64,000 bases of DNA from Acidobacteriota bacterium (GTDB lineage: Bacteria; Acidobacteriota; JAAYUB01): positions 52,102-116,101 of the forward strand of contig JAKQOW010000032.1 in assembly GCA_029565065.1 (NCBI GenBank), read 5' to 3'. The position numbers were made by a program, and so were the translations under genes. Positions 3,254 through 46,367 of the stretch are shown here, piece by piece. The notes under the pieces are model-generated. The model had not been told where the DNA came from, did no database searches, and saw only the letters and a program-made list of their open reading frames with translations. The number at the start of each line of letters is the position of its first letter. The stretch's first letter is position 1.

Positions 3254-3329
3254 GGGGCAATAGCTCAGTTGGAAGAGCGCGGCGTTCGCAATGCCGAGGT
3301 CGGGGGTTCGAGACCCCCTTGCTCCACCA
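3254..3329 (+). tRNA. tRNA-Ala (anticodon CGC), CCA encoded
   Basis: GGGGCAATAGCTCAGTTGGAAGAGCGCGGCGTTCGCAATGCCGAGGTCGGGGGTTCGAGACCCCCTTGCTCCACCA. The G3:U70 Ala identity pair is present, the anticodon loop is TTCGCAA, and the T-loop is TTCGAGA. Confidence 0.9.
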
Positions 3330-6082: not shown

Positions 6083-6098
6083 TCCCCGGGAGACCGCC

Positions 6099-6518: not shown

Positions 6519-6557
6519 AATCCGGGCGCCGGCTCGCCACCGCCTCCGGCGCCGGAG

Positions 6558-13166: not shown

Positions 13167-13229
13167 GACACAGCACGCTCCCGAAAAAAAATGACGGTGC
13201 CGGGCAGTGGGCCCGGCACCGTTCGATGA

Positions 13230-14624
13230 TCAGGCGGATTTCGGGGTTTCGGCGGCGGGCGTCAGCTTGGTGTCGTTGAGCAACAGCGAGAACACCAGGC
13301 CCACCGCAAGGAACGCGGCTCCGGTGTAGAACGAGTAGGTGGCTGCGTTCTCAGCGAACTTATCCTTGATGAGCGCGAAAATCTGCGGTCCGACGATGCC
13401 GGCAGCGGACCAGGCGGTCAGGATCACCCCGTAGACTTTGGGCATCAGCTTGGCGCCGTACACGTCCCCAACGAAGGCGGGCATGGTACCGAAGCCGCCA
13501 CCGTAGCACAGCAAGACGTAGCAGACCAGGATGCCGAAGATCCACGGATTGCTTGTGAACACCATGAAGATGAACGCAACGATCTGGGTGGCCAGCAGCA
13601 GGCGGAACACGTTGGTCCGGCCCAGCTTGTCGGACAGGCCGCCCCAGAGGAACCGGCCGAACCCGTTGAACAGCGAGCTGATGGCGATCAGAGTCGCACC
13701 GACGGCGGCCAGGGAGGCAACCGCTGCGGCGATGGTTTCGGCCGATGCGCCGGCGGCCTCCAGCGCCTTGACGTTGAGGGCGCTGTCCGCCTTCGCCACG
13801 ATGTCCTGCATGAGCGGCGACTGGAGCGAGATCACGGCGATGCCGGCGCAGATATTGCAGAAGAAGACGATCCACATCATGATGAACTTGCCCGAGAGCA
13901 GGTAGCGGGACAGGGGCGCGGTGGGCGCCGCAGCGTCGGCGGCGGCCTTGGCCGCGCCGCCCGGCGGATTGTAGCCCGCCGGCACAAAACCGGCCGGCGG
14001 ATTCTTCAGGAACGCCGCAAAGATCACGCACAGCACCAGGAACGCCACGCCCAGGTACAGGAAGACCTGGACCAGGTTGCCGCCGGTGAATCCCATCAGG
14101 AAGGGCGCGAACACCTTGGACATGATCAGGGCGCCGAAGCCGAAGCCCATGACCACCATGCCGGTCACCAGCCCCTTCTTGTCGGGAAACCACTTGGCCG
14201 CGGTGGCCACCGGCGTCACGTAGCCGAGGCCGAGACCGCTTCCGCCGATGACGCCGTAGCCCAGCAGCAGCAGCGGCAGTGAATGCTGGCTCAGGGCGAA
14301 CCCACCGATCAGGTACCCCAGGCCGAACAGGATACCGCCGGTGACAGCCAGCTTGGTGGGGCCGAACTTGGCCAGGTTGATGCCGCCCCAGGCGGCAGCC
14401 AGACCCAGGAAGCAGATGGCGAGATTGAACGCCCACATCACCTGGGAGTTGCTCCAGCTATAGGTGGCGACGAGCGGCTTTTGAAAAAAGCTCCAGGCAT
14501 AGACGGTGCCCAGCAGGACCATCAGCAGGGTGCCCATGATGGCCACCAGCCAGCGGTTGGGGGTGGATGCGGTTGTATTCAAGCTATTTCCCTCAAAGCA
14601 GAGATTGTTCCGGCTATTCGTCAT
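13230..14624 (-). CDS. MFS transporter, oxalate/formate antiporter (OFA) family
   Basis: Twelve predicted transmembrane helices. The N-terminus RWLVAIMGTLLMVLLGTVYAWSFF is typical of OFA-family MFS proteins. Confidence 0.85.
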   Translation of the reverse strand: MTNSRNNLCFEGNSLNTTASTPNRWLVAIMGTLLMVLLGTVYAWSFFQKPLVATYSWSNSQVMWAFNLAICFLGLAAAWGGINLAKFGPTKLAVTGGILFGLGYLIGGFALSQHSLPLLLLGYGVIGGSGLGLGYVTPVATAAKWFPDKKGLVTGMVVMGFGFGALIMSKVFAPFLMGFTGGNLVQVFLYLGVAFLVLCVIFAAFLKNPPAGFVPAGYNPPGGAAKAAADAAAPTAPLSRYLLSGKFIMMWIVFFCNICAGIAVISLQSPLMQDIVAKADSALNVKALEAAGASAETIAAAVASLAAVGATLIAISSLFNGFGRFLWGGLSDKLGRTNVFRLLLATQIVAFIFMVFTSNPWIFGILVCYVLLCYGGGFGTMPAFVGDVYGAKLMPKVYGVILTAWSAAGIVGPQIFALIKDKFAENAATYSFYTGAAFLAVGLVFSLLLNDTKLTPAAETPKSA

Positions 14625-14913: not shown

Positions 14914-16674
14914 CTAAGGAAGAACAGGGGCGGATGGGGCGGACTCCGGCGGCTGGTTGGTCACCAGGCACAGCGGGTTGGCGTACATGCCGGGGATCAT
15001 GTCGCCCAGCGAACGGGCCCGGATCGACAAGAACGGCCGCTCCGCCAGAACCCGATAGGGGATGCCTGCCTGCTCCAGCACCGCCAGCTTGTCTTTGCGC
15101 ATGAGACAGTAGATGGGCTGTCGGCGACTGAAGAAATTGTGGATCTCGCCGTCATAAAACAACTCGAGGATGGGCCGGCGGGTGTAGTAACAGAGCGAGG
15201 GCAGCGCCGTGGCAAAATACGCCACGTAATCATCGGGCCGGGCGCGTTCGTTGATCATCGCGGCCAGTTGGGGCACCTGCCTGTATTTTTCCAGAGCTGG
15301 AATCACCTCGTACACCAGAAACAGGCAGGCTACATACATCCCGGCGATCGGCAGCGCCAGAGCCGCCCGCCACCGGCGGCCGCCCGCCCAGATCCAGCCG
15401 AGCGCCATGAGGCCCGCCATGACCGGCAGGGTGATGGTGAGCAGCAGGTGCCGGTCGAGAATCTGCCGGCCCACCACGTACGACAGCACCACGATGCCCA
15501 GGCCGAGCAGGAACACCCCCCGGAGCACCCACGGGACCCAAGCCGGCGGCCTGGCGGCTCCGGCCAGGCGACGCCCCAACCACGCCAGCGCGATCGCCGC
15601 CGCCGGATAGGAGGGCAGGATGTAATACTCCTGCTTGTTCTTGGACAGGCTGAAAAACAGGATCGGCACAGCGAACCAGATCAGGAGCAGCACGAGCCGG
15701 GACTTGTCCCACTCGTCTAGCTCCGGCCAGTGGCGGCGCCACGCCACCACTCCCGCCACGAACAGCAGGCTCCACGGCGCGAAATCAGCCATGAAAATGG
15801 GCAGGTAATAGAACGGCCCCCGCTGCGGCCCGAAATCTTCGACGGTGAAGCGGCCGAAATTCTCCACCACCAGCAGGCGGTAGATCGTCTCGACACTCAG
15901 CGTGCGGGCCAGGCCGACGTACCAGGGGAGCACGATCAGCGCGAAGGCGACGGCAGCCAGGACGACGGCGCCCCAGGGGGCCCGCGGCCACTCCCGGCGC
16001 CAGGCCAGGTACGCCGCGGCGATGATCAGGGGCAGGGCCGCCGCCACCGGTCCCTTGTCCATGAAGCCCAGGCCGAGGCAGACACCCATCCAGATCAGAT
16101 CGCGGGGACGCCGCTCCTCCAGATAGGCGTGCAGGTAGTACACCACGGCCGTCACGCAAAACAGCAGCACCATGTCGATGACGCTCCGCCGGCCCATCAC
16201 GAAAATCCGGGGGGTCAGCGCCGTGATGGCGGCGGCGGCCCAGGCGACAACCCGGCTCGCGGTCATTCGGAACGCCAGGTGCCACACCACGACCAGCGTC
16301 GCCAGGGCGAACGCGGCGATGACCAGCCGCTGCGACCATACGCTCACGCCGCCCAGGCGGTACGCGATCATCACCAGCCAGTAAGCCAGCGGCGGCTTGT
16401 TGAGGCGGGGTTGGTAGTTGAACGTGGGCACGAGGTGGGTGCCGTGCTCCATCATCTCGCGGGGCGTCTCGACGTAGAACGCCTCATTGGAATCCCAGAT
16501 ACTCGAGGTGCCCGCGTGGATCAGATAGAGGACCGCCAGCAGGGCCGCCAAGGCCAGTGCGACGGGTTTGCGCCCCAGAATATCCTCGATGTGCACGATG
16601 TGTCTCTCCACCTGGACCGGGCCGGCGGCTGTCCGGACCGGACGCCAGACCGCCACTCGTTCCGGCCGCGTCAT
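14914..16674 (-). CDS. glycosyltransferase family 39 (ArnT/PMT-like) membrane protein
   Basis: Multi-pass membrane protein. The first periplasmic loop WDSNEAFYVETPREM resembles the DE-motif region of GT39 enzymes. 586 aa. Confidence 0.75.
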   Translation of the reverse strand: MTRPERVAVWRPVRTAAGPVQVERHIVHIEDILGRKPVALALAALLAVLYLIHAGTSSIWDSNEAFYVETPREMMEHGTHLVPTFNYQPRLNKPPLAYWLVMIAYRLGGVSVWSQRLVIAAFALATLVVVWHLAFRMTASRVVAWAAAAITALTPRIFVMGRRSVIDMVLLFCVTAVVYYLHAYLEERRPRDLIWMGVCLGLGFMDKGPVAAALPLIIAAAYLAWRREWPRAPWGAVVLAAVAFALIVLPWYVGLARTLSVETIYRLLVVENFGRFTVEDFGPQRGPFYYLPIFMADFAPWSLLFVAGVVAWRRHWPELDEWDKSRLVLLLIWFAVPILFFSLSKNKQEYYILPSYPAAAIALAWLGRRLAGAARPPAWVPWVLRGVFLLGLGIVVLSYVVGRQILDRHLLLTITLPVMAGLMALGWIWAGGRRWRAALALPIAGMYVACLFLVYEVIPALEKYRQVPQLAAMINERARPDDYVAYFATALPSLCYYTRRPILELFYDGEIHNFFSRRQPIYCLMRKDKLAVLEQAGIPYRVLAERPFLSIRARSLGDMIPGMYANPLCLVTNQPPESAPSAPVLP

Positions 16675-16684
16675 ACGCCGCGGA

Positions 16685-17443
16685 TCAGAAGCTGCAGCTC
16701 AGCGTCACGCCCCCCCACAGGACATCCGCCTCGCCGTCCCAATTGATGCTGCGCAACGCCTCCTTGCTCTGCGTGGTCAGCGGAAACGAATACGCGATCT
16801 GGCCGCCCAGGCTGAACCGTTCGCCCAGGGGCACCGACAGGGCGGAGTAGAACTCCAGGTTGTAGAACTGGGTGAATGGCTCGCCGTCCGATCCGGACCC
16901 CATGACTTTGTGCCGGATGTTGAAACCCATATTGGCGCCCGTCGCCAGTTCCATATCCCGGGGCAGGGTCCAGACACGTTCCAGCGTGCCCTGCACGAAG
17001 GCGCCGTCCCCCTCATCGAAATCGTAGTAGACCGTCACCTTGGGTGACACCCACCCCTCGTGGCCGACACTGACGAACACCTCCTGGGTGGACGGATAAT
17101 TTGCGATCCAATACATGATGTAACCGGCTTCCAGCTGGAGACCCCGCCACTCCCACGCGCGTCCGACATTGAAATCGATTTCGTTGGAGTCACCACTCCC
17201 GGGTTCCAGGTTGGACCAGACGCCGGCATACCACCCGGACACATCGACCGTCACCTCCGGCTGCAGCACGACGCCCTCGCTCAGCAGTTGACCCCGCCAG
17301 AAGTAGCGGGAATAGAAGCCCATCGCGGCCTCACCCGTGACCTCGGCGGCGCTCACGACGCCGGTCGCGCCGGCGGTGAGGATCAGCGCAACGACTGCCC
17401 ATCGGGACCATGAACCCATCGTGCGTGCCGGGTGTCCGTCCAT
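16685..17443 (-). CDS. outer-membrane β-barrel protein, unknown family
   Basis: Signal peptide (cleavage near VSAAE), alternating β-strand pattern, C-terminal LSCSF (aromatic end). Start placed at the Met with an upstream GAGGTG; the alternative start is 17419. Confidence 0.6.
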   Translation of the reverse strand: MDGHPARTMGSWSRWAVVALILTAGATGVVSAAEVTGEAAMGFYSRYFWRGQLLSEGVVLQPEVTVDVSGWYAGVWSNLEPGSGDSNEIDFNVGRAWEWRGLQLEAGYIMYWIANYPSTQEVFVSVGHEGWVSPKVTVYYDFDEGDGAFVQGTLERVWTLPRDMELATGANMGFNIRHKVMGSGSDGEPFTQFYNLEFYSALSVPLGERFSLGGQIAYSFPLTTQSKEALRSINWDGEADVLWGGVTLSCSF

Positions 17444-17637
17444 GTGCACCTCGCTGTAGGGAATGCGCGCAGCATAACACCACCGGTCTATGCTGGCAAG
17501 GGTCAACGCAGCCGGCGGCCGGTGCCGATCGCGGCAACGACGCCTTTGGTCTATCGGTCCTTGCCTTCGCCGGCGCCAGTTTCTACAATACGATGACGAA
17601 TCGTCCCCGATTCAGCAATCGGCACGGAGTGTGCACC

Positions 17638-19374
17638 ATGCGACGCATCACCTGGTCGACCTGCCACCTGTCCCGCCGCGGAGCGCTGGTCGCCGGCCTT
17701 TGGCTGGGACTGGCTCTGGCGTCCACCGCCGCCGGCAAGGGCACCCTGCCACCACCCACGTCGGTGCTGGCTGAACTGACTGCCGCCGCCCGTTCGACCA
17801 AGCCGGCGGACGTGAAGCTCCGCCTGAACCGCGCGGACACCCTCCTGAACCGCGACGCCGCAGTCGACGAGCGGGACGACCTGGGCCGCAACGTCCTGCA
17901 CTGGGCGGTGATCACCGCGAGCACCGCCGCCCACCGGGCCGAGCAGGAACGCGGCATCGAGGTTCTGGAACATCTGCTGCGCCACGGCGCGGACCCCAAC
18001 TGTCGGGACGTGTTCGGGAATGTGCCGCTGGATTACGAAGGATTCGCGCCGTACGAGACCATCCAGGACCTGCTGCTGGAAAACGGGGCGGAAGGCCGGG
18101 AAGTCAACACGGTCGCCAACCGTCTGGCGGAACAGGTGGCGCAACTCGAGAGCGCCAGCGCCGCCGGCGACCTGGACCGGCTGCGCGCCTTGCTGGAGGC
18201 CGGCATTCCCATCGGGACCAGCCTCGACATCCGGTTGACATCCGCTGTCGGCAGCGCCCGGTCCCGTGCCGGCGATCTCGTCGAGGGCGTTATCTGCGCG
18301 CCGGTGACGGTGGCTGGCCGGGCCGTGATCGGCGCCGGGACCCGCATCCGCGGAACCGTGCTGCGCACCCAAAAATGCCGCAACGCCTACGACCGGGCCA
18401 ACCTCATGCTGGACCTGTGCGACGTGATCCTGCCGGACGGTGCCCATCTGTGCCTGACGACCCGGCTGCAGTCGGTGGACAACGCACGCGAGACGGTCCG
18501 CGACGGGCTGATCATCGGCATCGCCTACCCGCACAACACTGCCAGCCGCATTTCCATGGGATTCCACATGCTCGGCAAGCTGTACCCGGCGGTGGGTTAC
18601 GCCTTCGACAGCGCCATGTACGCTTTCGGCCTGACCTACCACCGCGAGATCGACTATCCGGCCGGCACCGAGCTCACCGTCCAGGTGCAGCTCCCCTGCC
18701 GGTTCGCGCCGCCCGCCGGTGTGGTGCCGTGGCCGGAACTGAACCTCGACGAGGCGACCGCCGCGCAGCTGTGCGGCAGCCCCACCCGCACCGAGTCCGC
18801 CGACGGCCGGCCCGGCGACTGTGTCAACATCGTGCTGCTCGGAACCGCCGCGCAACTGCGGCAGGGATTTGAAACCGCGGGCTGGACCCCGGCGGAGAAG
18901 ACGGGCATGGTCTCCGGCGCCAAAACGTTCCTCGCCGTCCTGCAACAGAAGGGCTACGCGACGGCGCCGGTGTCCACCTTCCTGATGGGCGACCGGGCGC
19001 CGGACTTGGTGTTCCAGAAGCAGCTCAACACCTTCGCCAAGCGGCATCATGTCCGGATCTGGCAGCTGCCTGACCCCGTCGGCGGCGAGACGGCCTGGCT
19101 GGCCGCCGCCACCCACGACGTGGGCATCGGCGCGGAGAAAGCCGGGCTGTCCTGGTACCACCGGATCGACTCTCATATCGACCGGGAGCGGGACAAGATC
19201 GCCGCCGATCTCATGTTCACGGGGCTGCCCCGGGGCGTCTGCTGGCTGGACCGGCCGGACTTACCACGCACCGCCAAGAACGCCACCGGGGATGATCTGA
19301 TCACCGACGGACGGATGCTGGTGCTCGCCTTCCCGGCGCGCGCGGCGACCGCCGACACCGATTCGGCCGATTAG
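17638..19374 (+). CDS. periplasmic ankyrin-repeat protein with a C-terminal LssY_C-like domain
   Basis: Start at MRRITW, with GGAG 8 nt upstream. The ORF-track start at 17410 would overlap the divergent outer-membrane gene. Signal peptide, then ankyrin repeats (GRNVLHWAV, LLRHGADPNCRDVFGNVPL), then a C-terminal region (NTFAKRHHVRIWQ...) resembling the LssY C-terminal domain. Confidence 0.6.
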   Translation: MRRITWSTCHLSRRGALVAGLWLGLALASTAAGKGTLPPPTSVLAELTAAARSTKPADVKLRLNRADTLLNRDAAVDERDDLGRNVLHWAVITASTAAHRAEQERGIEVLEHLLRHGADPNCRDVFGNVPLDYEGFAPYETIQDLLLENGAEGREVNTVANRLAEQVAQLESASAAGDLDRLRALLEAGIPIGTSLDIRLTSAVGSARSRAGDLVEGVICAPVTVAGRAVIGAGTRIRGTVLRTQKCRNAYDRANLMLDLCDVILPDGAHLCLTTRLQSVDNARETVRDGLIIGIAYPHNTASRISMGFHMLGKLYPAVGYAFDSAMYAFGLTYHREIDYPAGTELTVQVQLPCRFAPPAGVVPWPELNLDEATAAQLCGSPTRTESADGRPGDCVNIVLLGTAAQLRQGFETAGWTPAEKTGMVSGAKTFLAVLQQKGYATAPVSTFLMGDRAPDLVFQKQLNTFAKRHHVRIWQLPDPVGGETAWLAAATHDVGIGAEKAGLSWYHRIDSHIDRERDKIAADLMFTGLPRGVCWLDRPDLPRTAKNATGDDLITDGRMLVLAFPARAATADTDSAD

Positions 19375-20879
19375 TACCGCCGCTGGAAAAACGCCGGCGG
19401 CGGCGCCGCGGGATCGAAACCGGGCACCCAGCGCGCCACCTGATCCGCCCCCTGGCTGAGGCGCCGCACGCAACGGGCGCTGAAATCGTCCAGCAGCCGG
19501 CGGGCCTTGTCTTCCTTCCCCTGGCGCGCCAGCTCGGCGGCGCGGCGGCGGACCTGCCGCCACTCCTTCAACTCCTTTCGCTCCAGCCCGGCCCAGTGGG
19601 CGCGGATCCGTCGAATCACCTCGTCCGACTCGCCCCAGCGGGCTTCCAGGTTCCGCGACACCGCCGCCAGCCGCCACCACAGCGACTCCTTCTCATAAGC
19701 CCCCCCTGCTCGGGTCAGTTCCTCCGAGAGCCGGAGGTCCAGCGTCGGAAAGAACGGGACATACGCGTTGAGACACGGCACGTGCAGGCACGTCCACAGG
19801 GTGCCGCCCAGGCCGTCGGCCATACCGGGCTCGGAGACCGCGATCATCGAACCCACGGTGCCGCCATAGCAGATGGTGCGCACCGGAATCCCCTCCAGCA
19901 GGGAGCCAGGCAGGGAACAGTGCGGATCGACGCCCGGCGTGTGCGGCCGGATCGAGCGCCCGTCGTCGGTCCGGAAGGTCCAGGTCTCGAAGTGGTCCCG
20001 GAGCACGGCGGCGATCCCTTCCACCGTGACCCGGCCTTCGATCCGCCGCATCCGCTCCATGCCCCGGCGGTAACGCATCTCGTTATAGTGGGTGTTGTCC
20101 GGGCCGTGATAATCCTTGCTGTATGAGAGCCGGAAACTGAATCGCCCGTTCTCCTCACGGTACTGCCCCTGGGCGCGGGCGTGTTCGATGAGCTCGCGGC
20201 GGCGCAGCCGGAACCGGTCCGAATCGTCGGGCAGGTCGGGGTCGGTGATTTCGAACCGGTTGGCCCGCACACAGACGCCGTCGGTCACCCGGACGGCCGC
20301 CCAGCGGTTGCCGGTGGTCTCGATGATCCAGATCTCGGCGGGATCGGCGACGGTATAGATCTCGGGCACCCGGCTGTGATGGCGGGCGATGAGCGCGTCC
20401 ACCAGGTCCACCGCTTCCCGGGCGGTGCGGCAGCGCTCCAGAATCAGGCGGGTGATATCGTTGTCATGGAGGGCCGGCCCGTCGAAGGTGTCCCAGGTAT
20501 TGCCGTCGTTGTTGGCCACGCTCACCTGGTGGCGGTTCATGCCCATCCCCACGCCCCAGCGCCACAGCCGGTCGTCCCGGTTCCGTTCATCCATGGATTT
20601 GAAACCAAGCAGCTGCCAGGTCTGGCGGGCGGCGTCTATGGTGATGAACTGCATCGTCTGTGTGGCGTCCGCGATATTCTCCCCGTCCGGCTGGAAGTGG
20701 AGGATCTGGCCGGAGTTGACGGGGTAATCACGGTTTTTGCCCAGGATGGTCACGCCGTCGCGGGTGGCGCGCCCGGTGGCGCCCACCATGGTGCAGTCGG
20801 CGGCCGCGACCTGGGTCGCCAGCAAGACCGCCACCAGGAGGATCCAGCCGACAATGGTCCATACGGTGCTACGCTTCAT
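19371..20879 (-). CDS. secreted C69-family dipeptidase (Ntn hydrolase)
   Basis: A signal peptide is followed immediately by the nucleophile Cys in AADCTMVGATGRATRDGVTILGKNRD, the C69 hallmark. 502 aa. Confidence 0.8.
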   Translation of the reverse strand: MKRSTVWTIVGWILLVAVLLATQVAAADCTMVGATGRATRDGVTILGKNRDYPVNSGQILHFQPDGENIADATQTMQFITIDAARQTWQLLGFKSMDERNRDDRLWRWGVGMGMNRHQVSVANNDGNTWDTFDGPALHDNDITRLILERCRTAREAVDLVDALIARHHSRVPEIYTVADPAEIWIIETTGNRWAAVRVTDGVCVRANRFEITDPDLPDDSDRFRLRRRELIEHARAQGQYREENGRFSFRLSYSKDYHGPDNTHYNEMRYRRGMERMRRIEGRVTVEGIAAVLRDHFETWTFRTDDGRSIRPHTPGVDPHCSLPGSLLEGIPVRTICYGGTVGSMIAVSEPGMADGLGGTLWTCLHVPCLNAYVPFFPTLDLRLSEELTRAGGAYEKESLWWRLAAVSRNLEARWGESDEVIRRIRAHWAGLERKELKEWRQVRRRAAELARQGKEDKARRLLDDFSARCVRRLSQGADQVARWVPGFDPAAPPPAFFQRRY

Positions 20880-20968: not shown

Positions 20969-23110
20969 TCAGTAACCGTAAGCCGCCACCACCGCCTCGG
21001 GGCCGATGTCATTGCCGTTCTGATCGATGTGGGCAAAGTTGTAGTTGTTCCCGTTCGTGAGTTTGATATGGAACGCCCGGTACATGCCGATGGGCAACCG
21101 GTTGGTCTTGAATTCCTTGATGGCCGAGCGCGGCACTTCAAAGTCGTCCGAGCGGCCGTCGATGGAGCGGGCGGTCCGGTACACCACCCGGTCGGGAAAG
21201 ATGGACAACTGTCCGACGCAGAACAGCGTGAAGTCCCCGCTGTGGTCGTGACCCACGAGGAACGTTTGCGCCTGACTCATGACGGCGGCCTGCTGCTCCG
21301 CATTCTCCAGATTGCTCATCAGCTGCCGGTAGTCACCGTTGGCGGGGAAAAACTGCATCAACAGCCGACACAGGCGCTTCGCGGACGCCAGGTCGCCCGA
21401 GTTGATCTGCGACTGCATCTGGCTGTGGACCATGGAGACCGCGTCCTGCTGCAACTGCAAAGCGTACGCGTGGCCGGGATCGCGCCGGAGAATCTCCCCG
21501 GTGAGCTGCAGCACGTTGTTCCCGGGTGGTTCGATGAACCGTCCCGCGGAATACGCCTGGTAGGCCTGGGTGGACAAGGCCTGCAGCGGATCTTCCACGG
21601 GTGTTTCTCCACCCGAGCCGGGCTGGTCGCCTTTGTTCGCCCATTTGCCGGAGTCGGGCGGCTCCTCCGACGGCGGTGGCGGCGGGACCGGTGTCGGTTG
21701 CGGCTTGGCATCTTTCCGCCCCTTGTCCGACTGCGCCGCGCCGCCGGGAAGCACGGGGAGCGTGAGCGTGCCGGTCGGCTGGCTCGATGACGGGCTGGCG
21801 GCCGGCAGGGACGCGGGGGTTGTCACGGGCGGAGTCTGGGTGCCGCCGGAGCTGCCGCCGGCCACCGTGGTGGAGGCGGTCGGCGTCTTGGGTGACGGTT
21901 TGAGTAACACCGCCAGCACCACGACCGCCAGAGTCACGATGATCAATCCGGCGGCGGCAACACCTCCGATTATCAGCACCTTCTTCTTGCTGGTGTCGGG
22001 CCGCGCGGCGGGGAAACCGGTGCCCAGCCGCGAGTCAAACACGGTGGCGCCGGGAATCTGGACACCCTGGGTGCCCGGCGGATACGCCTGGGTGCCACCC
22101 GGATATGCCTGCGTCCCGGCAGGATATGCCTGCGTCCCGGCAGGGTACGCCTGGGTGCCCGGCGGGTAAGCCTGTGTTCCGGCAGCGTACGCCTGGGTGC
22201 CCGGCGGCGGCGGGGGCGTTCCCGCCGGGCGGGCCGGGGCGGCGCCCGTGGCGGCATAGGCGGCGGTGGCGCGGGGCGGCGGCGCCGTGCGGAGGGCCTC
22301 CTGCAACGCCGCGCCGAGCGCCTGCGAGAATTCCTCAACGGTCTGGTAACGGGTGCGCGGGTCCTTCTCCAAAGCGTGCAGAACCGCCCGGTCGAACACC
22401 TTGGGCAGTTGCGGCAGGACCTTGGAGGGCGAGGGTGGCGGCGTGCGCACGTGGGCCTGCATGATCTCGAAGTCGGTGCTCCCCCGGAACGGCACCGTGC
22501 CGGTGAGCAACTCGAAGAGCGTGATGCCCAGCGCGTAGATGTCACACCGGTAATCGGTCTCCTTGCCCTGGATCTGCTCCGGCGACATGTAGTACAGAGT
22601 GCCCACCTGCAAACCGGTCTGGGTGAGGCGTGACTGGCCCATCACCCGGGCGATGCCGAAGTCCATGACCTTGACGATGCCTTGCCGGTTCACGATCATG
22701 TTCGACGGCTTGATGTCCCGGTGCAGGATGCCCATCCGGTGGGCCTGGCTCAGGCCGAACAGGGCCTGCTGGAACAGCGGCACGGCCTCATGAAAGGGGA
22801 CGGCACCGCGCTGCCGGATCATCTGCTCCAGGTTCATCCCTTCGACGTACTCCATCACCATGAACAATTGGTCCTGGTGGCGGAAGAAATTGTAGAGGGT
22901 GCACACGTTGGGGTGGTTGAGCTGGGCCTGGGTCTTGGCCTCGGCGAGAAAGCGCTGGATCAGGCTGGCTTCCTGCGACAGCTCTTTCGACAACACCTTG
23001 ATGGCGACGATGCGGTCCAGGTTGATGTCCACCGCCTTGTACACCGTGCCCATGCCGCCCTGGCCGATTTTTTCCAGGATTTTATAGTGGTCGATGACTT
23101 GACCGATCAT
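20969..23110 (-). CDS. transmembrane Ser/Thr protein kinase (Hanks-type) with an extracytoplasmic C-terminal domain
   Basis: N-terminal kinase motifs GQGGMGTVYKAVD, VAIKVL, HRMGILHRDIKPSN, DFGIA and YMSPEQ. Then a Pro-rich linker with 7-aa repeats, one transmembrane helix, and an extracytoplasmic domain of about 330 aa. Confidence 0.85.
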   Translation of the reverse strand: MIGQVIDHYKILEKIGQGGMGTVYKAVDINLDRIVAIKVLSKELSQEASLIQRFLAEAKTQAQLNHPNVCTLYNFFRHQDQLFMVMEYVEGMNLEQMIRQRGAVPFHEAVPLFQQALFGLSQAHRMGILHRDIKPSNMIVNRQGIVKVMDFGIARVMGQSRLTQTGLQVGTLYYMSPEQIQGKETDYRCDIYALGITLFELLTGTVPFRGSTDFEIMQAHVRTPPPSPSKVLPQLPKVFDRAVLHALEKDPRTRYQTVEEFSQALGAALQEALRTAPPPRATAAYAATGAAPARPAGTPPPPPGTQAYAAGTQAYPPGTQAYPAGTQAYPAGTQAYPGGTQAYPPGTQGVQIPGATVFDSRLGTGFPAARPDTSKKKVLIIGGVAAAGLIIVTLAVVVLAVLLKPSPKTPTASTTVAGGSSGGTQTPPVTTPASLPAASPSSSQPTGTLTLPVLPGGAAQSDKGRKDAKPQPTPVPPPPPSEEPPDSGKWANKGDQPGSGGETPVEDPLQALSTQAYQAYSAGRFIEPPGNNVLQLTGEILRRDPGHAYALQLQQDAVSMVHSQMQSQINSGDLASAKRLCRLLMQFFPANGDYRQLMSNLENAEQQAAVMSQAQTFLVGHDHSGDFTLFCVGQLSIFPDRVVYRTARSIDGRSDDFEVPRSAIKEFKTNRLPIGMYRAFHIKLTNGNNYNFAHIDQNGNDIGPEAVVAAYGY
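22065..22215 (-). repeat. seven tandem 21-nt repeats (encoding AGTQAYP units) inside the kinase linker
   Basis: Repeated ggatatgcctgcgtcccggca-like units can be seen directly. They translate to PGTQAYPAGTQAYPAGTQAYPGGTQAYPPGTQ. Confidence 0.6.
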
Positions 23111-23123
23111 GAGTTGCCCCCGA

Positions 23124-23714
23124 TCACAATCTCCGGAATTTCAGATAGACGCCGCCGATCCGGATCAGGTCCTCGTCCGCCAGCAGATGGCGGGGCGACG
23201 GTTGGGTCCCGTTATTAACGAACACGGGCCCCTCCATCCCTTCCAAGTACAGGCCGTCCCGCTCTTTCACCACGCGCGCATGGCTCGGAGCCACCCCCGT
23301 TTCCTCGAGCCGCAGACCGGCGCCGTGACCCGAGCCGACCACCAGCTGCTCGCGGTCGAGGCGGACATCCGCAAACTTGGCGGCACCGCTCATGACCACC
23401 AGCCAGCCCAGCAGGGGCAGACCGCCGGACGGGCGCGCGGGGGACGGCGTGAGCGGCAGCGTGGGCATCGCGCCGGCGGACGCGCCGTCCGCCACCGTCG
23501 CGCCCGGCGGCGTTCGGTAGTGGGCGGTGTAGCCGTCCACCACCGTCGCCCGCAGTGGTGAAGCGGGGCCCAGTTCGGTGGGTGGGGCCACCGGCAGCGG
23601 CGGGGGAGTGGAGCTGCCCAGCGGCTTCTGCACCCCGTCCTCGGTTCGGGCGCAGTACGGGCACTCGTTCATCCACTCTTCCATCGGGTGTCCGTGCGCA
23701 CAGAACTTCAGCAT
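23124..23714 (-). CDS. FHA-domain protein with an N-terminal zinc-ribbon
   Basis: The N-terminus has CAHGHPMEEWMNECPYC (a C/H-x-C ... C-x2-C Zn ribbon). The C-terminal FHA core is LVVGSGHGAGLRLEETGVAPSHARV...DGLYLEGMEGPVFVNN. Start taken at MLKFCAHG. Confidence 0.7.
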   Translation of the reverse strand: MLKFCAHGHPMEEWMNECPYCARTEDGVQKPLGSSTPPPLPVAPPTELGPASPLRATVVDGYTAHYRTPPGATVADGASAGAMPTLPLTPSPARPSGGLPLLGWLVVMSGAAKFADVRLDREQLVVGSGHGAGLRLEETGVAPSHARVVKERDGLYLEGMEGPVFVNNGTQPSPRHLLADEDLIRIGGVYLKFRRL

Positions 23715-23747
23715 CGCTCCACTCCGGCTCCGCGCCCGCACCGCGGA

Positions 23748-25397
23748 TCATTCCACCCGGAAGATCGCCGCCTGCTTGCTCCCCAGGATGATCCGGTCGC
23801 CGCTCTTGACGAAGTTCTGCTGGACCCGCGGCGAGTTGATGTCGTTGATGAACGTCCCGTTCGTCGATCCCCGATCCTCCAGCAGGAGACCTTTGGGGCT
23901 CGGGGTGAGCAGCGCGTGCACCTTGGACACGTGGTCGTCCGGAACGACCACCGTGCATTGGGACGGATCGCGGCCGAAGATCAGGCCCTTGGACGGTATC
24001 TCCATCACTTTACCGGCACTGGGGCCCTTCTCGCAGACCAGCCGGCCGAAGCTGCCCACCTGCTGGCGCTGCGACTGGACATCCACGACCGTGGCCCGCA
24101 TCTCCGGGGTGCCGGCGGCCGGCCGCGGGGGCGGCGGAGCGGCTTTCTTCCCGCGCGCCGCCAGGATCCCCACCACGCCGACGATCACCAGCAACAGCAA
24201 CCCGCCTCCCACGATCGCCAGGATCGTGCCGTACCGGCTGAAGAAGGTGGGCGGATGGGCGGTGAGCCATTCCTGGCATTTGACCTGGATTCGTTTGGCA
24301 TCCGGCTGGTTGGGCATCAGGCGGAGAATCTCGTCGCACTTGACGATCGCTTCCTCGTAATCCTCGTCGAAGTAGAGATCCAGCGCCTGTTGCCACAGGC
24401 TGTCGATCAACCCGCGTTTTGACTGGATGCCGGCGGCGCTGATGAATTCCTTGGCCGTGTTGATGGGGACGGCGAAATTGAATCCCTGGATGGGAATGGC
24501 GCTCTGGGCGCCCGTGGGGGCCAGGCTGATGAACGTGGCGATGCCGATCACCTCGCCGCTGTCGTTGAAGACCGGGCCGCCCGAGTTGCCCCACGTGACC
24601 GGTGCGTCAAACTGGATGACCGGCGTGCCCTTCACGTCCAGCTTCAGGCTGGACACGTGGCCCGAGGTGATGGAGGCTTCGAGCATCGAGGACTGGCTCA
24701 GGTAATCGTGCTGGCTCACCACGCCGGGGTAGCCGGCGGGGAACACCGCCGCCTGGAGCGAAACCGCGGCGGAGTCACCCAGCGGCACCGTGGGCAGGTT
24801 GCCCTGCTCGATCTTGAGCACCGCGATATCCTTGCCCGACTCTTCCTCCTCGTAGCTGAAGATGCCTTCGGTCTTGCCGGCAACGGGGGTGATCGGCGGG
24901 CTGTACTGCTTGATCTCGGCGGGGAAGTACTGCCAGTTCGACAGGAACACGAACAGCTGCTTGGACACCTGAAACACCGCCGCGGCCGCGAGCTGCTGGA
25001 AGACCGACACCTTCTCCTCCTGGGTCAGGGGCGCGCCTTTCCGCTGCTCCAGCGCGGGAAAGATGTGCTGCTCGAGGATCTGCACCAGTGCCTGAGACTT
25101 GAGCGAGTTGTTCTCCTTGCTGTGGTACTCTTTCACTACATGGCCATTGGTCACGATGTAGCCGTCCGGATTGACGATGAATCCGGAGCCGGATCCACTC
25201 ATGTCCATGGGATCGAACTCCTGCAGGCCTTCATCCGTCCGGATCGCCACCTTGACCTGTATCCGCGAGTAGACCATGACCACGCCCGGCTTGACGGTGA
25301 GGATGTTCTTTTCGCGCGCCCGCTCATCGGCGGCGGTCAACGACGCACCGAGAGCCAGCACCAACAGAAGGGCGAGAACGCACCCGCGCTGCGACAT
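23748..25397 (-). CDS. trypsin-like serine protease (S1C/DegP-like) fused across the membrane to a C-terminal FHA domain
   Basis: Signal peptide, then a protease domain with His in TNGHVV and Ser in TWGNSGGPVF. One transmembrane helix (ILAIVGGGLLLLVIVGVVGILAA). The cytoplasmic tail has an FHA core (LIFGRDPSQCTVVVPDDHVSKVHALL...GSTNGTFIND). Confidence 0.8.
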   Translation of the reverse strand: MSQRGCVLALLLVLALGASLTAADERAREKNILTVKPGVVMVYSRIQVKVAIRTDEGLQEFDPMDMSGSGSGFIVNPDGYIVTNGHVVKEYHSKENNSLKSQALVQILEQHIFPALEQRKGAPLTQEEKVSVFQQLAAAAVFQVSKQLFVFLSNWQYFPAEIKQYSPPITPVAGKTEGIFSYEEEESGKDIAVLKIEQGNLPTVPLGDSAAVSLQAAVFPAGYPGVVSQHDYLSQSSMLEASITSGHVSSLKLDVKGTPVIQFDAPVTWGNSGGPVFNDSGEVIGIATFISLAPTGAQSAIPIQGFNFAVPINTAKEFISAAGIQSKRGLIDSLWQQALDLYFDEDYEEAIVKCDEILRLMPNQPDAKRIQVKCQEWLTAHPPTFFSRYGTILAIVGGGLLLLVIVGVVGILAARGKKAAPPPPRPAAGTPEMRATVVDVQSQRQQVGSFGRLVCEKGPSAGKVMEIPSKGLIFGRDPSQCTVVVPDDHVSKVHALLTPSPKGLLLEDRGSTNGTFINDINSPRVQQNFVKSGDRIILGSKQAAIFRVE

Positions 25398-25546
25398 ATG
25401 GCCTCCTTAATCGGTCCTGAATGCATGTCTACCGGCGTTTTGATCTCATTGTAGCACAGGCGCAAAGGCCCGCAATCGATTTTGCTTGGGCGCGGATTCC
25501 GGGCATGTTATAGATGCCGCATGCCCCCAAGCGGAAACGTTCGGCT

Positions 25547-26350
25547 ATGACGCGCTGCCGACTCACCCTGACGAACGACCTGCACCTGGATCTGATCCAC
25601 CTGTGGGACCACCCCTTGTCGCATTTCCTCGACCGCCTGGCCCGGGAGGGCGTCCAACGGCTGGTCCTGGCCGGCGACCTGATTTCGTTCGCCGAGCAAA
25701 ACCTGGACAAGGCCTTCCGGGCGCTCGCCCCTTTCGCCGGGCAGATCTTGTACACGCCCGGCAACCACGACCTGTGGACACGCTTCGGCGATTCCCTGCA
25801 GCTCTACGAGGACTACATCCCGGCTGTGTGCGCCCGCCACGGCGTGCACTACCTGGACGCCGCCCCGCACATCGAGGGTGCGGTGGCCGTTGTCGGCAAC
25901 GTGGGCTGGTACGATTATGCTTTCCGGGATGAATCGCTGGGCTACCCCGACGACTGGTACCGACAACGCTGGATACCCGGACGCTTTCAATGGATGGACC
26001 GGCATTACATTCGCTGGCCGCTGACAGATCCGGAATTCGTCGACCGCTGCTGCCGGCGCCTGGACACCCAGCTCGACGGACTGCCGGACACGGTGGACAC
26101 GGTGGTCGTCGTCACCCACCACGTCCCGTTTCACGAATTGCTCGTCCGCAAATCCGATCCGGTCTGGCGGTTCGGAAACGCTTTCATGGGCAGCCCGCGG
26201 CTCGGTGAGGTCATCCGGAGGCATCCGCGGGTGACCCACGTTTTCTGCGGCCATTCGCATGCCGGAGTGCGCCTCACCACGGAAGGGCGCACCGCCGTCT
26301 GCCTGGGCGGCAACTACAACAAGAAAGTGCTGGAAACCATCGAGCTGTGA
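25547..26350 (+). CDS. calcineurin-like metallophosphoesterase
   Basis: Motifs DLHLD, GDLIS, GNHD and GHSH. Confidence 0.75.
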   Translation: MTRCRLTLTNDLHLDLIHLWDHPLSHFLDRLAREGVQRLVLAGDLISFAEQNLDKAFRALAPFAGQILYTPGNHDLWTRFGDSLQLYEDYIPAVCARHGVHYLDAAPHIEGAVAVVGNVGWYDYAFRDESLGYPDDWYRQRWIPGRFQWMDRHYIRWPLTDPEFVDRCCRRLDTQLDGLPDTVDTVVVVTHHVPFHELLVRKSDPVWRFGNAFMGSPRLGEVIRRHPRVTHVFCGHSHAGVRLTTEGRTAVCLGGNYNKKVLETIEL

Positions 26351-26362
26351 ATGACCGCCGGT

Positions 26363-29020
26363 TCAGCGATCCGGCGCCGACGGCTTCTCCCCGGCCGGGT
26401 CACCCGTTGGGGCGGCTTCGGCGCTCTCTGCGCCGGCGGCAGTCGGCGCCACCATCTGTTCCAGGCGCCGGATCCGGTCCGCCATCTGTTGCCGCTCTTC
26501 CCGCCACGCCGCCGCCCGCGCGGACCGGCGGTGGCGAGCCGTCACGATCGCCACGACGGCGAAGGTGATCAGCATCAGGCCCGCGGTCCACCGGAACGGT
26601 GCGGTCCGCCAGAAGGGCGCCCGGACCTCCACGCTGACCGTCAGCGGCCTGGGGCTCCAGATCCCGGCATGATTGCGAGCCAGAACCTTCAGGGTGTAGG
26701 TGCCGGGCGGCGGGAACGTCAGCCGGAAACCGTGTTCACGGGTGGGCTCAGTCCAATCGGGGTAGAGACCATCCAGCAGGTAGCGGTACCGGACACCCTG
26801 CTCATCTCGATAGCTCAAACCCACCCAGTCGAATGCGACGGTGCGGACCGAGTCCGGCAGCACGCACCGTCCGTTCACGACCGGAACCGGCTGCCCGTCC
26901 GCTTTCAGCTCCGTCAGATGGATCATGGGCGGAGAAAGATTGGGGATGTCGCCCTCGGGATTGTGCCGGCAGGCGCCACGGTTGGTGCCGAACCAGAGCC
27001 GCCCGTCGGCATCCAGCGTCCATGCTCCCCGCAGGACAATCTGCCCGAAAAAACCGGCGAACACTCCGTATGATTCCACCGCCTGACCGTTGAAACGCCC
27101 CAGCCCGCGGTTGGTCAACAGCCAGATCCCGCCCTGCCGATCCTGCAGGATCTCGTACACGGCTTCACCTGCCAGCCCGTCCTGCGGTGAGTAGCGGCGG
27201 AGCTCCTCTCCGCTGAAACAGTTCAGTCCCAGGTCGGTGCCGATCCAGACGTTCTTTTCCGTGTCTTCATGCCAGCTCAGCACCGCCTTGCCCAGCAAGC
27301 CGTTGGCCTCGTTGTAGTTGACGATTCGGCCCTGCCAAAAGACGCTGAGCCCCTCGTCGGTGGCGATCCAGATCCGGCCCATGGAGTCCTCGCGGAAGAA
27401 CCGGATCGAGTCGCTGACCAGGCCCGTCGCCCGGGTGATGTTGCGGAAGTAGTCGTAGCGGTACACCATCAGCCCCGCCCGGGAGCCGAACCACAACTGG
27501 TTTCGGGAATCCTGAAAGATCTGCCGCACCTGGTTGTGGAGCAGCCCGTCGGTTTCGGTGTACACCCGGACGGCGCCGTTCCGGTCGATGGCCGCCAGTC
27601 CTTTTCGGGTGCCGCACCAGATGGTGCCGCGGCGGTCCTGGAGGAGCGCCTGGACCTCGGTGTCCGGCAAGCCCTCCACCGCGTCGTACACGCGGCGGAC
27701 GGCGAGTCCCTCGATCATCGCCAGTCCGCCCGCCATGGCCACCCAGATCCGGCCATCCCGGTCCTCCATCATGCTGGCCACGGGACCGCCCGGCAGTCTG
27801 TGGCCGCGGCCCAGCCGGGTGATCCGGCGGCCGTCGACACAGAGCACTTCCTGATCCGCTCCCAGCCACGCCCGCCCGCGCGAATCCACCAGGGCGAGTT
27901 GCAGCCGGTTGGTCGGCAGGCCGGGTCCCGGATCCAGGCGGATGAAGCCGCGGCCGTCCCAATGGCTGAGGCCGCCGTCGAGGGACGTCAGCCAGAGTCC
28001 ACCCCGCCCGTCCGGTCGGATCTCGTTGATGGATCCCTCGCAGAGACCGTCCCGGCGGTCGTAGAGCACGAACTGTTCACCCATGAATCGCGACAGCCCC
28101 CCTTCGCGGGTGGCGATCCAGAGGTTATGCTCCCGGTCCAGGCACAGACTGGTGACGAATGGACACCCGAGCCCTTCACGGGTGCCGAACGGAGTGAACG
28201 TCCGTCCGTCGTACCGGATGACACCCGCGCCCCAGGTACCGATCCAGAGGCAGTCCCGACGGTCGTCCCGCACAATCTTGTTCACCTCGGGACACGGCAG
28301 GCCGTCGGCGCCGGTGAAGACGCGGATTTTATCGCCGTCGATCCGGAGCAGACCCGCGGAGGTGCCCGCCCAGACAACGCCGCGAGCATCCTCCATGAAA
28401 CCGTACACCGTCCGCCGCGGCGTGGCGGTTTCCCGGACCAGGGTACGGAATGACTCGCCCTCCCGGACGCTGATCCCCCGCATGGTACCCACCCACAGCC
28501 GCCCCGCCCGGTCGAAGAACAGGCTGCGGACCGCGTTGTCCACCAGGCCGTCAGCTACCGTCCAGAGCGTGAACTTCCCGTCCTTCAGGCGGGCGACACC
28601 CTCGTCCGTGCCCACCCACGGGCAGCCGTCGCCGGCGATGACAATGGCGCGGATCGTCCGGCTCCGCAAGCCGTCGGGTTTGACAGCGTGAAACCGGCCA
28701 TCCCGGCGGACGGTCAGTCCCAGTCCGGTACCGATCCAGAGATTCCCCCGGCCGTCTTCCACCAGGCTGATGACCGTGCCGAAGGACAGGCCGTCGGCGG
28801 TGGTGAACGTGGTGAACTCGCGGCCGTCATACCGCACGAGGCCGCCGGAGGTCCCCAGCCAGATGAACCCCCGGCTGTCCTGGATCACCGACCAGACGCG
28901 GGGGCTGGGCAGTCCTTCGAGCGACGAGTACTGCCGAAAAGGCCACATCTCGGCCAGCAACGGAAGGCACGCCAAACCGATCAGGAGCAGGCAAAGGATG
29001 CGCCGCACGACAACCCCCAC
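26363..29020 (-). CDS. Reg_prop (two-component regulator propeller) / Y_Y_Y sensor-domain protein with no output domain
   Basis: Signal peptide, then more than 12 Reg_prop blades (G-L-x-x-D/G-R-G-x-LW-GT) and a Y_Y_Y domain (YRYLLDGLYPDWTEPT). One transmembrane helix (LMLITFAVVAIVTA) and a 60-aa tail. No kinase, HATPase or DNA-binding domain. Confidence 0.8.
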   Translation of the reverse strand: MGVVVRRILCLLLIGLACLPLLAEMWPFRQYSSLEGLPSPRVWSVIQDSRGFIWLGTSGGLVRYDGREFTTFTTADGLSFGTVISLVEDGRGNLWIGTGLGLTVRRDGRFHAVKPDGLRSRTIRAIVIAGDGCPWVGTDEGVARLKDGKFTLWTVADGLVDNAVRSLFFDRAGRLWVGTMRGISVREGESFRTLVRETATPRRTVYGFMEDARGVVWAGTSAGLLRIDGDKIRVFTGADGLPCPEVNKIVRDDRRDCLWIGTWGAGVIRYDGRTFTPFGTREGLGCPFVTSLCLDREHNLWIATREGGLSRFMGEQFVLYDRRDGLCEGSINEIRPDGRGGLWLTSLDGGLSHWDGRGFIRLDPGPGLPTNRLQLALVDSRGRAWLGADQEVLCVDGRRITRLGRGHRLPGGPVASMMEDRDGRIWVAMAGGLAMIEGLAVRRVYDAVEGLPDTEVQALLQDRRGTIWCGTRKGLAAIDRNGAVRVYTETDGLLHNQVRQIFQDSRNQLWFGSRAGLMVYRYDYFRNITRATGLVSDSIRFFREDSMGRIWIATDEGLSVFWQGRIVNYNEANGLLGKAVLSWHEDTEKNVWIGTDLGLNCFSGEELRRYSPQDGLAGEAVYEILQDRQGGIWLLTNRGLGRFNGQAVESYGVFAGFFGQIVLRGAWTLDADGRLWFGTNRGACRHNPEGDIPNLSPPMIHLTELKADGQPVPVVNGRCVLPDSVRTVAFDWVGLSYRDEQGVRYRYLLDGLYPDWTEPTREHGFRLTFPPPGTYTLKVLARNHAGIWSPRPLTVSVEVRAPFWRTAPFRWTAGLMLITFAVVAIVTARHRRSARAAAWREERQQMADRIRRLEQMVAPTAAGAESAEAAPTGDPAGEKPSAPDR

Positions 29021-46274: not shown

Positions 46275-46367
<93 letters not shown>

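Follow-up and report, generated by a model that had tools for sequence, protein, structure and literature searches.

How could a protease that is predicted to act outside the cell membrane come under the control of a kinase that acts inside it? This question is raised by three adjacent genes on contig JAKQOW010000032.1 of an Acidobacteriota bacterium (assembly GCA_029565065.1), located in a stretch of 64,000 nucleotides (nt) of the forward strand (positions 52,102 to 116,101; hereafter the window). Gene 1 encodes a bitopic protein with a trypsin-type protease domain and a C-terminal FHA domain, gene 2 encodes a small FHA-like protein and gene 3 encodes a Hanks-type Ser/Thr kinase. A preliminary description of this DNA had linked the protease to the kinase through the FHA domain. 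The reading favoured here, to which we assign a probability of about 0.6, is that the protease is recruited or clustered by phosphothreonine that the kinase makes, which would give control over proteolysis beyond the membrane.

Conservation of the gene neighbourhood

Seven distant homologues of gene 1 (35-42% identity), from Eisenbacteria, Geobacteraceae, Gemmatimonadota and metagenome contigs, were compared gene by gene. Each of the seven has as neighbours the genes of a PP2C phosphatase, a Hanks kinase and a small FHA protein, the last often carrying a zinc ribbon, and at some of these loci the protease-FHA gene is itself present in two or three tandem copies. In what follows, "small partner" denotes an FHA gene of the gene 2 type and "cassette" denotes the protease-FHA, small FHA and Hanks kinase genes together, with or without PP2C. 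A further 80 metagenome loci were annotated with hidden Markov models built from the cassettes, and neighbours were counted within 6 kilobases (kb). Among the FHA-bearing relatives with at least 4 kb of sequence on one side (n = 30), a kinase gene was found in 22, a small FHA gene in 21, a PP2C gene in 19 and all three in 17; where at least 4 kb was available on both sides, the kinase was present in 10/13. The commonest order, on one strand, is protease-FHA, small FHA, PP2C, kinase. In the FHA-less relatives, kinase, small FHA and PP2C genes were each found in 0/24, a set in which one-sided flanks of at least 4 kb are available for 12 loci and some protease open reading frames (ORFs) run off the contig end, leaving their FHA status undefined. 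Because the neighbourhood is conserved across phyla, a functional tie between the FHA domain and the neighbouring Hanks kinase is strongly backed, which supports the link made in the preliminary description.

The window has a G+C content of 63-70%, and long spurious ORFs are frequent on both strands. The three ORFs are real genes and not GC-rich chance ORFs, because the gene 1 protein is 100% identical to NCBI proteins HOB52639.1 and HQM62431.1 (from Acidobacteriota metagenome-assembled genomes) and because gene order is preserved in orthologous loci of 72-97% identity. As had been described, the genes are co-directional, lying on the minus strand with gaps of 33 nt (genes 1 and 2) and 13 nt (genes 2 and 3); coordinates, strand and gaps match the ORF list (Table 1). 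A tblastn search of the window with four cassette PP2C proteins found no PP2C gene; the operon of this clade therefore consists of three genes, a reduced cassette of protease-FHA, small FHA and kinase. Based on these results, we interpret the operon as the acidobacterial version of a widespread Hanks-kinase/FHA cassette that usually also includes PP2C.

An HtrA-like protease with a single membrane helix

The gene 1 protein contains Trypsin_2 and FHA domains, both above their Pfam cut-offs, and one transmembrane (TM) helix, the combination that had been expected for it. Trypsin_2 matches amino acids (aa) 70-286 (E-value: 1e-24, 88 bits against a cut-off of 27.6), and the catalytic residues are His86 (in TNGHV, starting at aa 83), Asp190 (in DIAVLK, aa 190) and Ser272 (in GNSGGP, aa 270). 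This match and the motif positions bear out the protease, with its His in TNGHV and its Ser in GNSGGP, that was reported earlier. Because neither the His86/Asp190/Ser272 triad nor GNSGGP varies in 30 relatives, the most distant of which have 33% identity, gene 1 is predicted to encode an active enzyme and not a pseudo-protease.

By hydropathy, the TM helix spans aa 392-410, and the 15 residues that precede it contain one Lys/Arg, compared with four after it; a tally across 30 family members gave means of ~1.6 before and ~3.6 after. The protease would lie outside and the FHA domain inside whether the N-terminal segment is a cleaved signal peptide or an uncleaved anchor. Hydropathy and Lys/Arg bias thus predict that the two domains are on opposite membrane sides, as was proposed, and not on the same side. 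An AlphaFold model based on a 30-sequence alignment (mean predicted local distance difference test score, pLDDT, of 85.8) is made up of the protease (aa 39-321), helices (330-380), a helix containing the TM segment (385-415), a disordered stretch (416-447) and an FHA beta-sandwich (452-548).

The closest solved structures by profile and fold are of the HtrA type (MucD, DegP, DegQ, DegS, HtrA1/2 and plant Deg1), and Foldseek with the protease domain returned Deg1, HtrA1, DegS and MucD with E-values of about 1e-16. However, scores fall far below the curated cut-offs for degP_htrA_DO (95.2 against 416.2), DegS (67.7 against 423), MarP (48 against 250) and MamE (50 against 800). Pfam found no PDZ domain in gene 1, and the model shows three TPR-like helices in its place, in which Pro365 and Asp366 are near-invariant across the 30 relatives. 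The region between His and Asp is ~75 residues longer than in HtrA; it is conserved in the family (AEIKxYSPP) and absent from solved HtrA structures. Profile matches to PDB entries skip it and align only at profile positions 62-95 and 191-320. Pfam found nothing significant in this insertion, which is modelled with a pLDDT of 92-97 over aa 91-170. The term "DegP-like" in the preliminary description therefore goes too far for a protein that has no PDZ domain, carries this insertion and misses the HtrA, DegP and DegS models by such a distance. The protease is HtrA-like, yet outside every curated HtrA family.

The FHA domain of the protease and its small partner

The C-terminal FHA domain passes its Pfam model (aa 473-539, E-value: 2e-13, 50.9 bits against a cut-off of 20.7), in agreement with the earlier assignment. 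Of the pocket residues, Gly475, Ser491 and Asn513 do not vary among the 30 relatives and conservation is at least 90% for Arg476 and His494, and alignment supports the competence of this domain for phosphothreonine binding. In a larger alignment, the phosphate-contacting Arg is present in 42/53 protease FHA domains and replaced by Thr in 11/53. The corresponding position in the small partners is Arg in 0/37 (30 Ser, 3 Thr, 2 Gly, 1 Ala and 1 Lys), although most of these proteins still have the pocket Ser, His and Asn. Because of this difference, the protease is predicted to carry the canonical phosphothreonine reader of the cassette.

Gene 2 is 196 aa in length when started at an ATG; the longest ORF, from a GTG at 23741, is 205 aa. 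In its product, a Pro-rich linker connects a Cys/His knuckle (aa 5-21) to an FHA-like domain that lacks the Arg (aa ~107-194). Not only is Ser found at the Arg position, but the pocket Ser and Asn positions are also changed. Pfam scores fall below cut-off both for FHA (19.9-20.0 against 20.7 bits) and for Yop-YscD_cpl (29.3 against 33.2), the latter being the higher of the two. This protein had been called a zinc-ribbon/FHA protein. The Cys/His motif (C-x3-H-x8-C-x2-C) is indeed shared with its orthologues in loci L005, L006, L010 and L011B, and small partners of other cassettes have a CxxC...CxxC arrangement with Pfam Zn_Ribbon_1 matches; however, no Pfam zinc-ribbon model matches gene 2, its FHA score is just under the cut-off and the pocket Arg is gone. 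The gene 2 domain probably has an FHA-like fold but is not a canonical reader, and judging from its residues the protein, whose FHA fold looks degenerate and similar to that of YscD, more likely serves as a substrate or adaptor than as a further reader of phosphothreonine.

The kinase and its variable ectodomain

Gene 3 matches Pkinase (E-value: 9e-59, 199 bits; kinase domain aa 9-256) and has the catalytic motifs VAIK, HRDIKPSN and DFG at aa 35, 130 and 150, with Lys38, Asp132, Asn137 and Asp150 invariant in the kinase alignment. Its activation loop reads LTQTG (aa 162), and T-x-T is found at this place in all cassette kinases but the divergent L008a and two L011 kinases. The topology mirrors that of gene 1: the catalytic domain comes first (inside), followed by KKK, a TM helix and 311 residues outside. 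A Ser/Thr kinase with a large extracytoplasmic C-terminal part, as first reported, is thus what the Pkinase match and the TM helix indicate.

Beyond the membrane, a Pro/Thr/Ser-rich spacer of ~100 aa leads to a folded ectodomain that is TPR-like and PH/PTB-like in place of PASTA repeats. The PknB/Stk1 PASTA model NF033483 scores 353.8 bits against a cut-off of 450, with the match confined to the kinase domain, and Pfam found no significant family in the ectodomain. Among kinases with the same ectodomain, His623 and His681 are invariant and His621 is near-invariant (H-D/R-H ... H), and a metal or another ligand may be bound there. Cys pairs are added in more distant versions of the PH/PTB-like domain. 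Whereas the protease-FHA protein is constant, the kinase ectodomain varies strongly from cassette to cassette, as is usual for systems in which the input diversifies and the output is conserved. The kinases of L007, L009 and L012 have only a short basic extracellular tail.

In two of these short-tailed cases a lipoprotein-like gene of ~180 aa, bearing a lipobox, lies between the kinase and small FHA genes (L007, 9887-10435; L009, 10175-10714). Elsewhere, an outer-membrane barrel gene (Phenol_MetA_deg) directly follows the protease (L006, 8582-9520; L008, 8623-9474). The barrel and lipobox genes are candidate substrates or co-sensors; the window contains neither. A Bact_GSDM gasdermin gene (5771-6565) directly follows the L012 cassette, and nSTAND1-TPR (10461-14381) and patatin (15051-15623) genes follow that of L008. 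These neighbours could be there by chance or could reflect an occasional link with conflict systems.

A candidate phospho-motif shared by the three proteins

The sequence Thr-(Val/Ile/Gln)-(aliphatic or aromatic) is present in disordered cytoplasmic segments of all three proteins. In the kinase of the window, a tandem repeat next to the membrane encodes six GTQAYxx heptads and a partial seventh (aa 304-352), and GATVFD comes next (aa 354-359). There are seven GTQ units in this kinase and six in the 90-96% identical P0264 and P0265 and in the L001 kinase, which points to recent gain or loss of units in a candidate phospho-docking platform. Kinase orthologues of 37-61% identity have KTVAF, KPTVIF, GATVFA, RTVAY, RTVVQ or RMTVLE in place of the heptads. 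The gene 2 linker has ATVVD (aa 56-60) and ATVAD (aa 72-76), in the contexts RATVVD and GATVAD, while distant partners have GKTVVF, GRTVVY, AKTVRV and similar sequences. The hexapeptide RATVVD is common to gene 2 and the protease linker. In the latter the motif is held as [KR]-x-T-[VIT]-VDV down to 48% identity, and it is a candidate phospho-acceptor and FHA ligand.

Occurrences of T-[VIQ]-[AVIFL] were counted and compared with composition-preserving shuffles. The juxtamembrane regions of 13 kinases contain 28, of which the window repeats supply seven, against 5.4 expected, and 0/2000 shuffles reach 28. In these kinases the extracellular spacer, although just as rich in Thr, contains three (3.45 expected). 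Protease linkers contain 10 (1.7 expected), and a similar motif, T-[VIKR]-[VILRFAM], occurs 22 times in the small partners (4.2 expected).

Distribution and modularity of the family

The preliminary description had held that a protease-TM-FHA fusion is not a standard architecture, a view that the database searches contradict. A word-indexed protein search gave 5778 matches, the best 120 of which are nearly all full-length (about 500-610 aa), with a few shorter or partial. Trypsin_2 and FHA occur together in all of these best 120, down to 35% identity, except for P0016 (419 aa, Trypsin only). An exhaustive search of 1.84 billion representatives identified 374 clusters (50% identity) at an E-value of 1e-30 or lower, and a metagenome scan confirmed 498 relatives among the first 600 pattern matches. 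Genome contigs scanned with the gene 1 protein alone as query gave just two near relatives. Named sources are Acidobacteriota, Candidatus Eisenbacteria, Geobacteraceae, "Deltaproteobacteria", Gemmatimonadota and Hydrogenobacter thermophilus/bacterium HR13, and protease-FHA relatives occur in at least five phyla. Their database names are generic, automatically assigned ones ("trypsin-like peptidase domain-containing protein", "FHA domain-containing protein" and "serine protease Do"), and full-text searches of an open-access library found no description of a trypsin/HtrA-TM-FHA protein. The fusion is widespread but uncharacterised, not rare.

The same protease core, TPR-like helices and TM helix are also found with other tails. 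These include two FHA domains (P0140 and P0181), FHA with DUF4328 (P0182), rhodanese (P0146), and rhodanese with a cyclic-nucleotide-binding domain (P0203, in which the TM helix is followed by RRWWRNRFR); P0178, P0196 and P0237 have nothing beyond the TM helix. Judging from their domain content, the relatives seem to be bitopic proteases built from modules, in which one cytoplasmic sensor domain can stand in for another. Because a cyclic-nucleotide-binding domain, which is a ligand-input module, replaces FHA, the cytoplasmic tail would be the input and the protease the output. Two or three tandem protease paralogues are present in L006 and L011 and also in the FHA-less L063 and L064, which hints at hetero-oligomers or substrate diversification.

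Proposed mechanism and alternative explanations

In the mechanism that we propose, the kinase would sense an outside signal through its TPR-like and PH-like ectodomain and would phosphorylate Thr-(Val/Gln)-hydrophobic motifs at three places: its own juxtamembrane repeats, the small partner and the protease linker. The FHA domain of the protease would dock on the resulting phosphothreonines, for which the six- to seven-fold repeat on the kinase would provide a multivalent platform. Docking would recruit or cluster the protease and thereby set the place and strength of extracytoplasmic cutting (inside-out control), and in most lineages PP2C would reset the system. The architecture, topology bias, conservation of catalytic and pocket residues, gene linkage and motif enrichment are directly supported by the comparisons above. 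From these we infer which Thr residues are phosphorylated, FHA binding, its effect on protease activity, the substrates and the direction of signalling.

Several observations weigh against this mechanism. The well-flanked, FHA-bearing loci L076, L079 and L092 have no kinase nearby, and the protease FHA domains with Gly-Thr for Gly-Arg (e.g. P0073 and P0120) form a sub-clade in which phosphothreonine dependence may be altered or lost. The shared motif was defined after the sequences had been inspected, the kinase orthologues compared are mutually related, and only about a third of protease linkers carry it. With no PP2C in the window, the reset step is unaccounted for there. Moreover, clustering is the only simple route by which docking in the cytoplasm could affect an active site in the periplasm across a single TM helix. 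Enzymes of the HtrA type act as trimers and higher oligomers. More generally, and only tentatively, we suggest a class of bitopic HtrA-like proteases whose extracytoplasmic activity would be set by a swappable cytoplasmic module (FHA, cyclic-nucleotide-binding or rhodanese); where this module is FHA, the kinase with its multivalent phosphothreonine repeats would seed clusters of the protease. Such a class would have the reverse logic of DegS/RseP-type regulated proteolysis.

The same parts could also signal from the outside in, with the protease as a sensor or co-receptor: engagement of unfolded or specific envelope proteins would alter its oligomeric state, and the FHA tail would present substrates to the kinase or hold it, so that the kinase is informed of the state of the envelope. 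HtrA proteases such as DegS are envelope-stress sensors, and FHA tethering to the kinase would work equally well in this direction. The kinases of L007, L009 and L012, being without a folded sensor, need another one, but the lipoprotein-like gene of L007 and L009 could fill this role and the window kinase has its own well-folded predicted ectodomain. As FHA domains read phosphorylation, normally downstream of a kinase, and as relatives exchange FHA for a cyclic-nucleotide-binding input module, we regard outside-in signalling as unlikely. A docked protease might also cut the kinase spacer or ectodomain, or an accessory lipoprotein or outer-membrane protein, and so end or mature the signal. Docking at juxtamembrane phosphothreonines would bring the exposed spacer of the kinase within reach, and lipoprotein-like or barrel genes do co-occur in some cassettes. 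However, ectodomains vary and some kinases have almost none, which excludes the kinase as the universal substrate, and we consider feedback shedding of this kind rather improbable.

An anti-phage or conflict system with kinase-triggered proteolysis as its effector is very unlikely. The gasdermin gene after the L012 cassette and the nSTAND1-TPR and patatin genes after that of L008 are suggestive, and PADLOC matches the kinase and protease domains. These matches are generic, though (PD-T4-6 and mad6 kinase models; RT-protease and LmuA protease segments), and do not extend to the small FHA protein or the neighbouring genes. Such neighbours were found in only 2/7 of the distant cassettes, an extracytoplasmic protease could not cut a cytoplasmic gasdermin, and the neighbours in the window are housekeeping-like (C69 dipeptidase and arginine decarboxylase). 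Nothing was found to favour a joining of the protease and FHA genes by a frameshift, an assembly error or chance adjacency, and such an artefact can practically be dismissed, given that all but one of the best 120 homologues have both domains, that an identical protein is present in several independent assemblies and that the full-length model is confident. Recruitment of the protease by kinase-made phosphothreonine is therefore the explanation that we prefer.

Features of the locus

The features of the three genes are listed in Table 1. Gene 1 is preceded by a strong ribosome-binding site (AAGGAGG, 5 nt upstream of the ATG). A promoter and terminator scan gave counts not above those of shuffled sequence. 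There are no Rfam matches at the locus, and the only ones in the window are three tRNA genes (197-268, minus strand; 3254-3326, plus strand; 46278-46367, minus strand).

Table 1. Positions in the window of the three genes and of the features recognised within them
Feature	Position	Strand	Basis
Gene 1, bitopic protease-FHA, 549 aa (NCBI HOB52639.1)	23748..25397	-	ORF, Pfam, predicted structure
Predicted signal peptide (Sec-type) or uncleaved N-terminal anchor, aa 1-24	25326..25397	-	hydropathy: core aa 5-23, then TAA|DE
HtrA-like (S1C-type) chymotrypsin-fold protease domain, aa 39-321	24435..25283	-	Pfam, alignment, Foldseek
Family-specific region between His and Asp, aa 96-188	24834..25112	-	two helices and strands; alignment, model
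Three TPR-like helices in PDZ position, aa 330-380	24258..24410	-	TPR_2 (E-value: 0.006, below cut-off), model
Single TM helix, aa 388-412, then RGKK	24162..24236	-	hydropathy, family comparison, model
Disordered Pro-rich cytoplasmic linker, aa 413-451, holding RATVVD (aa 434-439, nt 24081-24098)	24045..24161	-	model, motif scan
Canonical FHA, aa 452-548, with Gly475-Arg476, Ser491, His494, Asn513	23754..24044	-	Pfam, alignment
Gene 2, small partner, 196 aa	23124..23714	-	ORF, sub-cut-off Pfam, orthologue alignment
Gene 3, single-pass Hanks-type Ser/Thr kinase, 713 aa	20969..23110	-	ORF, Pfam
21-nt tandem repeat, 6.8 copies	22066..22207	-	encodes GTQAYxx heptads, kinase juxtamembrane
Kinase TM helix, aa 384-402, preceded by KKK	21905..21961	-	hydropathy
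Kinase ectodomain, TPR-like helical bundle, aa 508-612	21275..21589	-	after Pro/Thr/Ser-rich spacer
Kinase ectodomain, PH/PTB-like beta-sandwich, aa 615-713	20972..21268	-	His623, His681, His621 conserved

Two neighbouring genes were considered as further members of the operon and rejected. A divergent Metallophos gene (25514-26350) might have replaced the missing phosphatase, but its TIGR03729-type likeness is below cut-off and PPP-type signatures are absent by motif reading; it is kept beside the operon in close relatives only. The C69 dipeptidase gene downstream (19371-20879, minus strand, 89-nt gap) adjoins the operon only in relatives of at least 72% identity and is absent from distant cassettes. 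On this flank a plus-strand gene (17410-19374) encodes an ankyrin-repeat/LssY_C protein, the linkage of which is also kept in close relatives only. On the other, a minus-strand gene (26363-29020) encodes an 885-aa protein with many Reg_prop beta-propeller repeats and Y_Y_Y, then a hydrophobic helix and a short tail, in which Pfam found no histidine-kinase, GGDEF or DNA-binding output domain.

Comparison with known systems

The nearest parallel in organization is PknF/Rv1747, where a Hanks kinase is in an operon with a protein of membrane-spanning function that bears cytoplasmic FHA domains. PknF phosphorylates Thr150 and Thr208 of the ABC transporter Rv1747; these residues lie in its own disordered linker and are bound by its own FHA domains, activating the transporter (PMC3138270). 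Rv1747 is an ABC exporter with N-terminal FHA domains, whereas gene 1 encodes a periplasmic serine protease with one C-terminal FHA domain, and the protease cassettes have in addition a small Arg-less FHA partner and usually PP2C. The threonine-phosphorylation pathway of type VI secretion (PpkA, PppA and Fha) likewise joins a Hanks kinase, which spans the membrane and has a periplasmic sensor, to a PP2C and to an FHA protein; phosphothreonine binding by the latter turns on an envelope-spanning machine, and Fha binds phosphothreonine on TssL (PMC3953482). However, that pathway drives the building of a secretion apparatus and its FHA protein is soluble; there are no type VI secretion genes at the locus. 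As regards docking next to the membrane, phosphorylation of the juxtamembrane domain has been described for the StkP kinase (PMC12077195).

The protease itself resembles DegS and AlgW/MucD of the sigma-E pathway, which are inner-membrane-tethered, periplasmic proteases of the HtrA fold (Foldseek E-values of about 1e-15 to 1e-14) that carry out signalling proteolysis in the periplasm. DegS differs in having an N-terminal anchor, a PDZ domain that senses the C-termini of outer-membrane proteins and no cytoplasmic domain, whereas gene 1 lacks PDZ and has the His-Asp insertion and a C-terminal TM helix and FHA domain.

GarA and OdhI are FHA regulators whose ligand is a phosphothreonine of their own tail. 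In the Bdellovibrio protein DgcB (FHA-GGDEF), the FHA domain is the input of the enzyme and its ligand also comes from its own tail, a phosphopeptide of its own N-terminus being activating (PMC6733907). By analogy with these proteins, RATVVD, which lies 13 residues upstream of the gene 1 FHA domain, could be a self-ligand. DgcB, GarA and OdhI are soluble and cytoplasmic, whereas the enzyme of gene 1 sits across the membrane from its FHA domain.

Other FHA proteins share parts of this layout. FhaB/FipA (Rv0019c) has the order TM helix, Pro-rich linker, FHA, and gene 1 aa 400-520 match its model NF049868 (E-value: 8e-16), but with a score of 58.5 against a cut-off of 125; FhaB has no extracytoplasmic domain, compared with 390 aa in gene 1. 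The actinobacterial fhaA-fhaB-pstP-pknA-pknB cluster similarly combines Hanks kinases and PP2C with two FHA proteins. One functional paper on FipA is marked as retracted (PMC2797604), and no functional inference is drawn from FipA here. The type III secretion ring proteins YscD, EscD and MxiG are single-pass proteins with a cytoplasmic FHA fold and a periplasmic domain, and Yop-YscD_cpl matches both FHA-type domains of the locus; however, their FHA domain is N-terminal, the periplasmic part is a ring scaffold and not an enzyme, and they have no kinase linkage. A 2008 survey of prokaryotic serine proteases lists Bacteroides thetaiotaomicron NP_811686 as FHA-FHA-Trypsin (PMC2605481), a single catalogue entry with the opposite domain order and without functional or contextual analysis. 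No other mention of FHA combined with a trypsin fold was found in the open-access library searched.

Significance

By these comparisons, an FHA-coupled membrane machine under Hanks-kinase control has precedents, as does each step of the proposed mechanism, and the protease as output is what would set this system apart. To our knowledge, bacterial Hanks kinases are abundant and few of their outputs are known, nearly all of them cytoplasmic. If the proposed mechanism is true, the cell controls periplasmic or envelope proteolysis from within, and a transmembrane protease joins the short list of FHA-regulated membrane machines, alongside Rv1747 and the type VI secretion system. As the family is large, spans several phyla and yields predictions at the level of single residues (specific Thr residues, Arg476 and Ser272), the hypothesis is directly testable.

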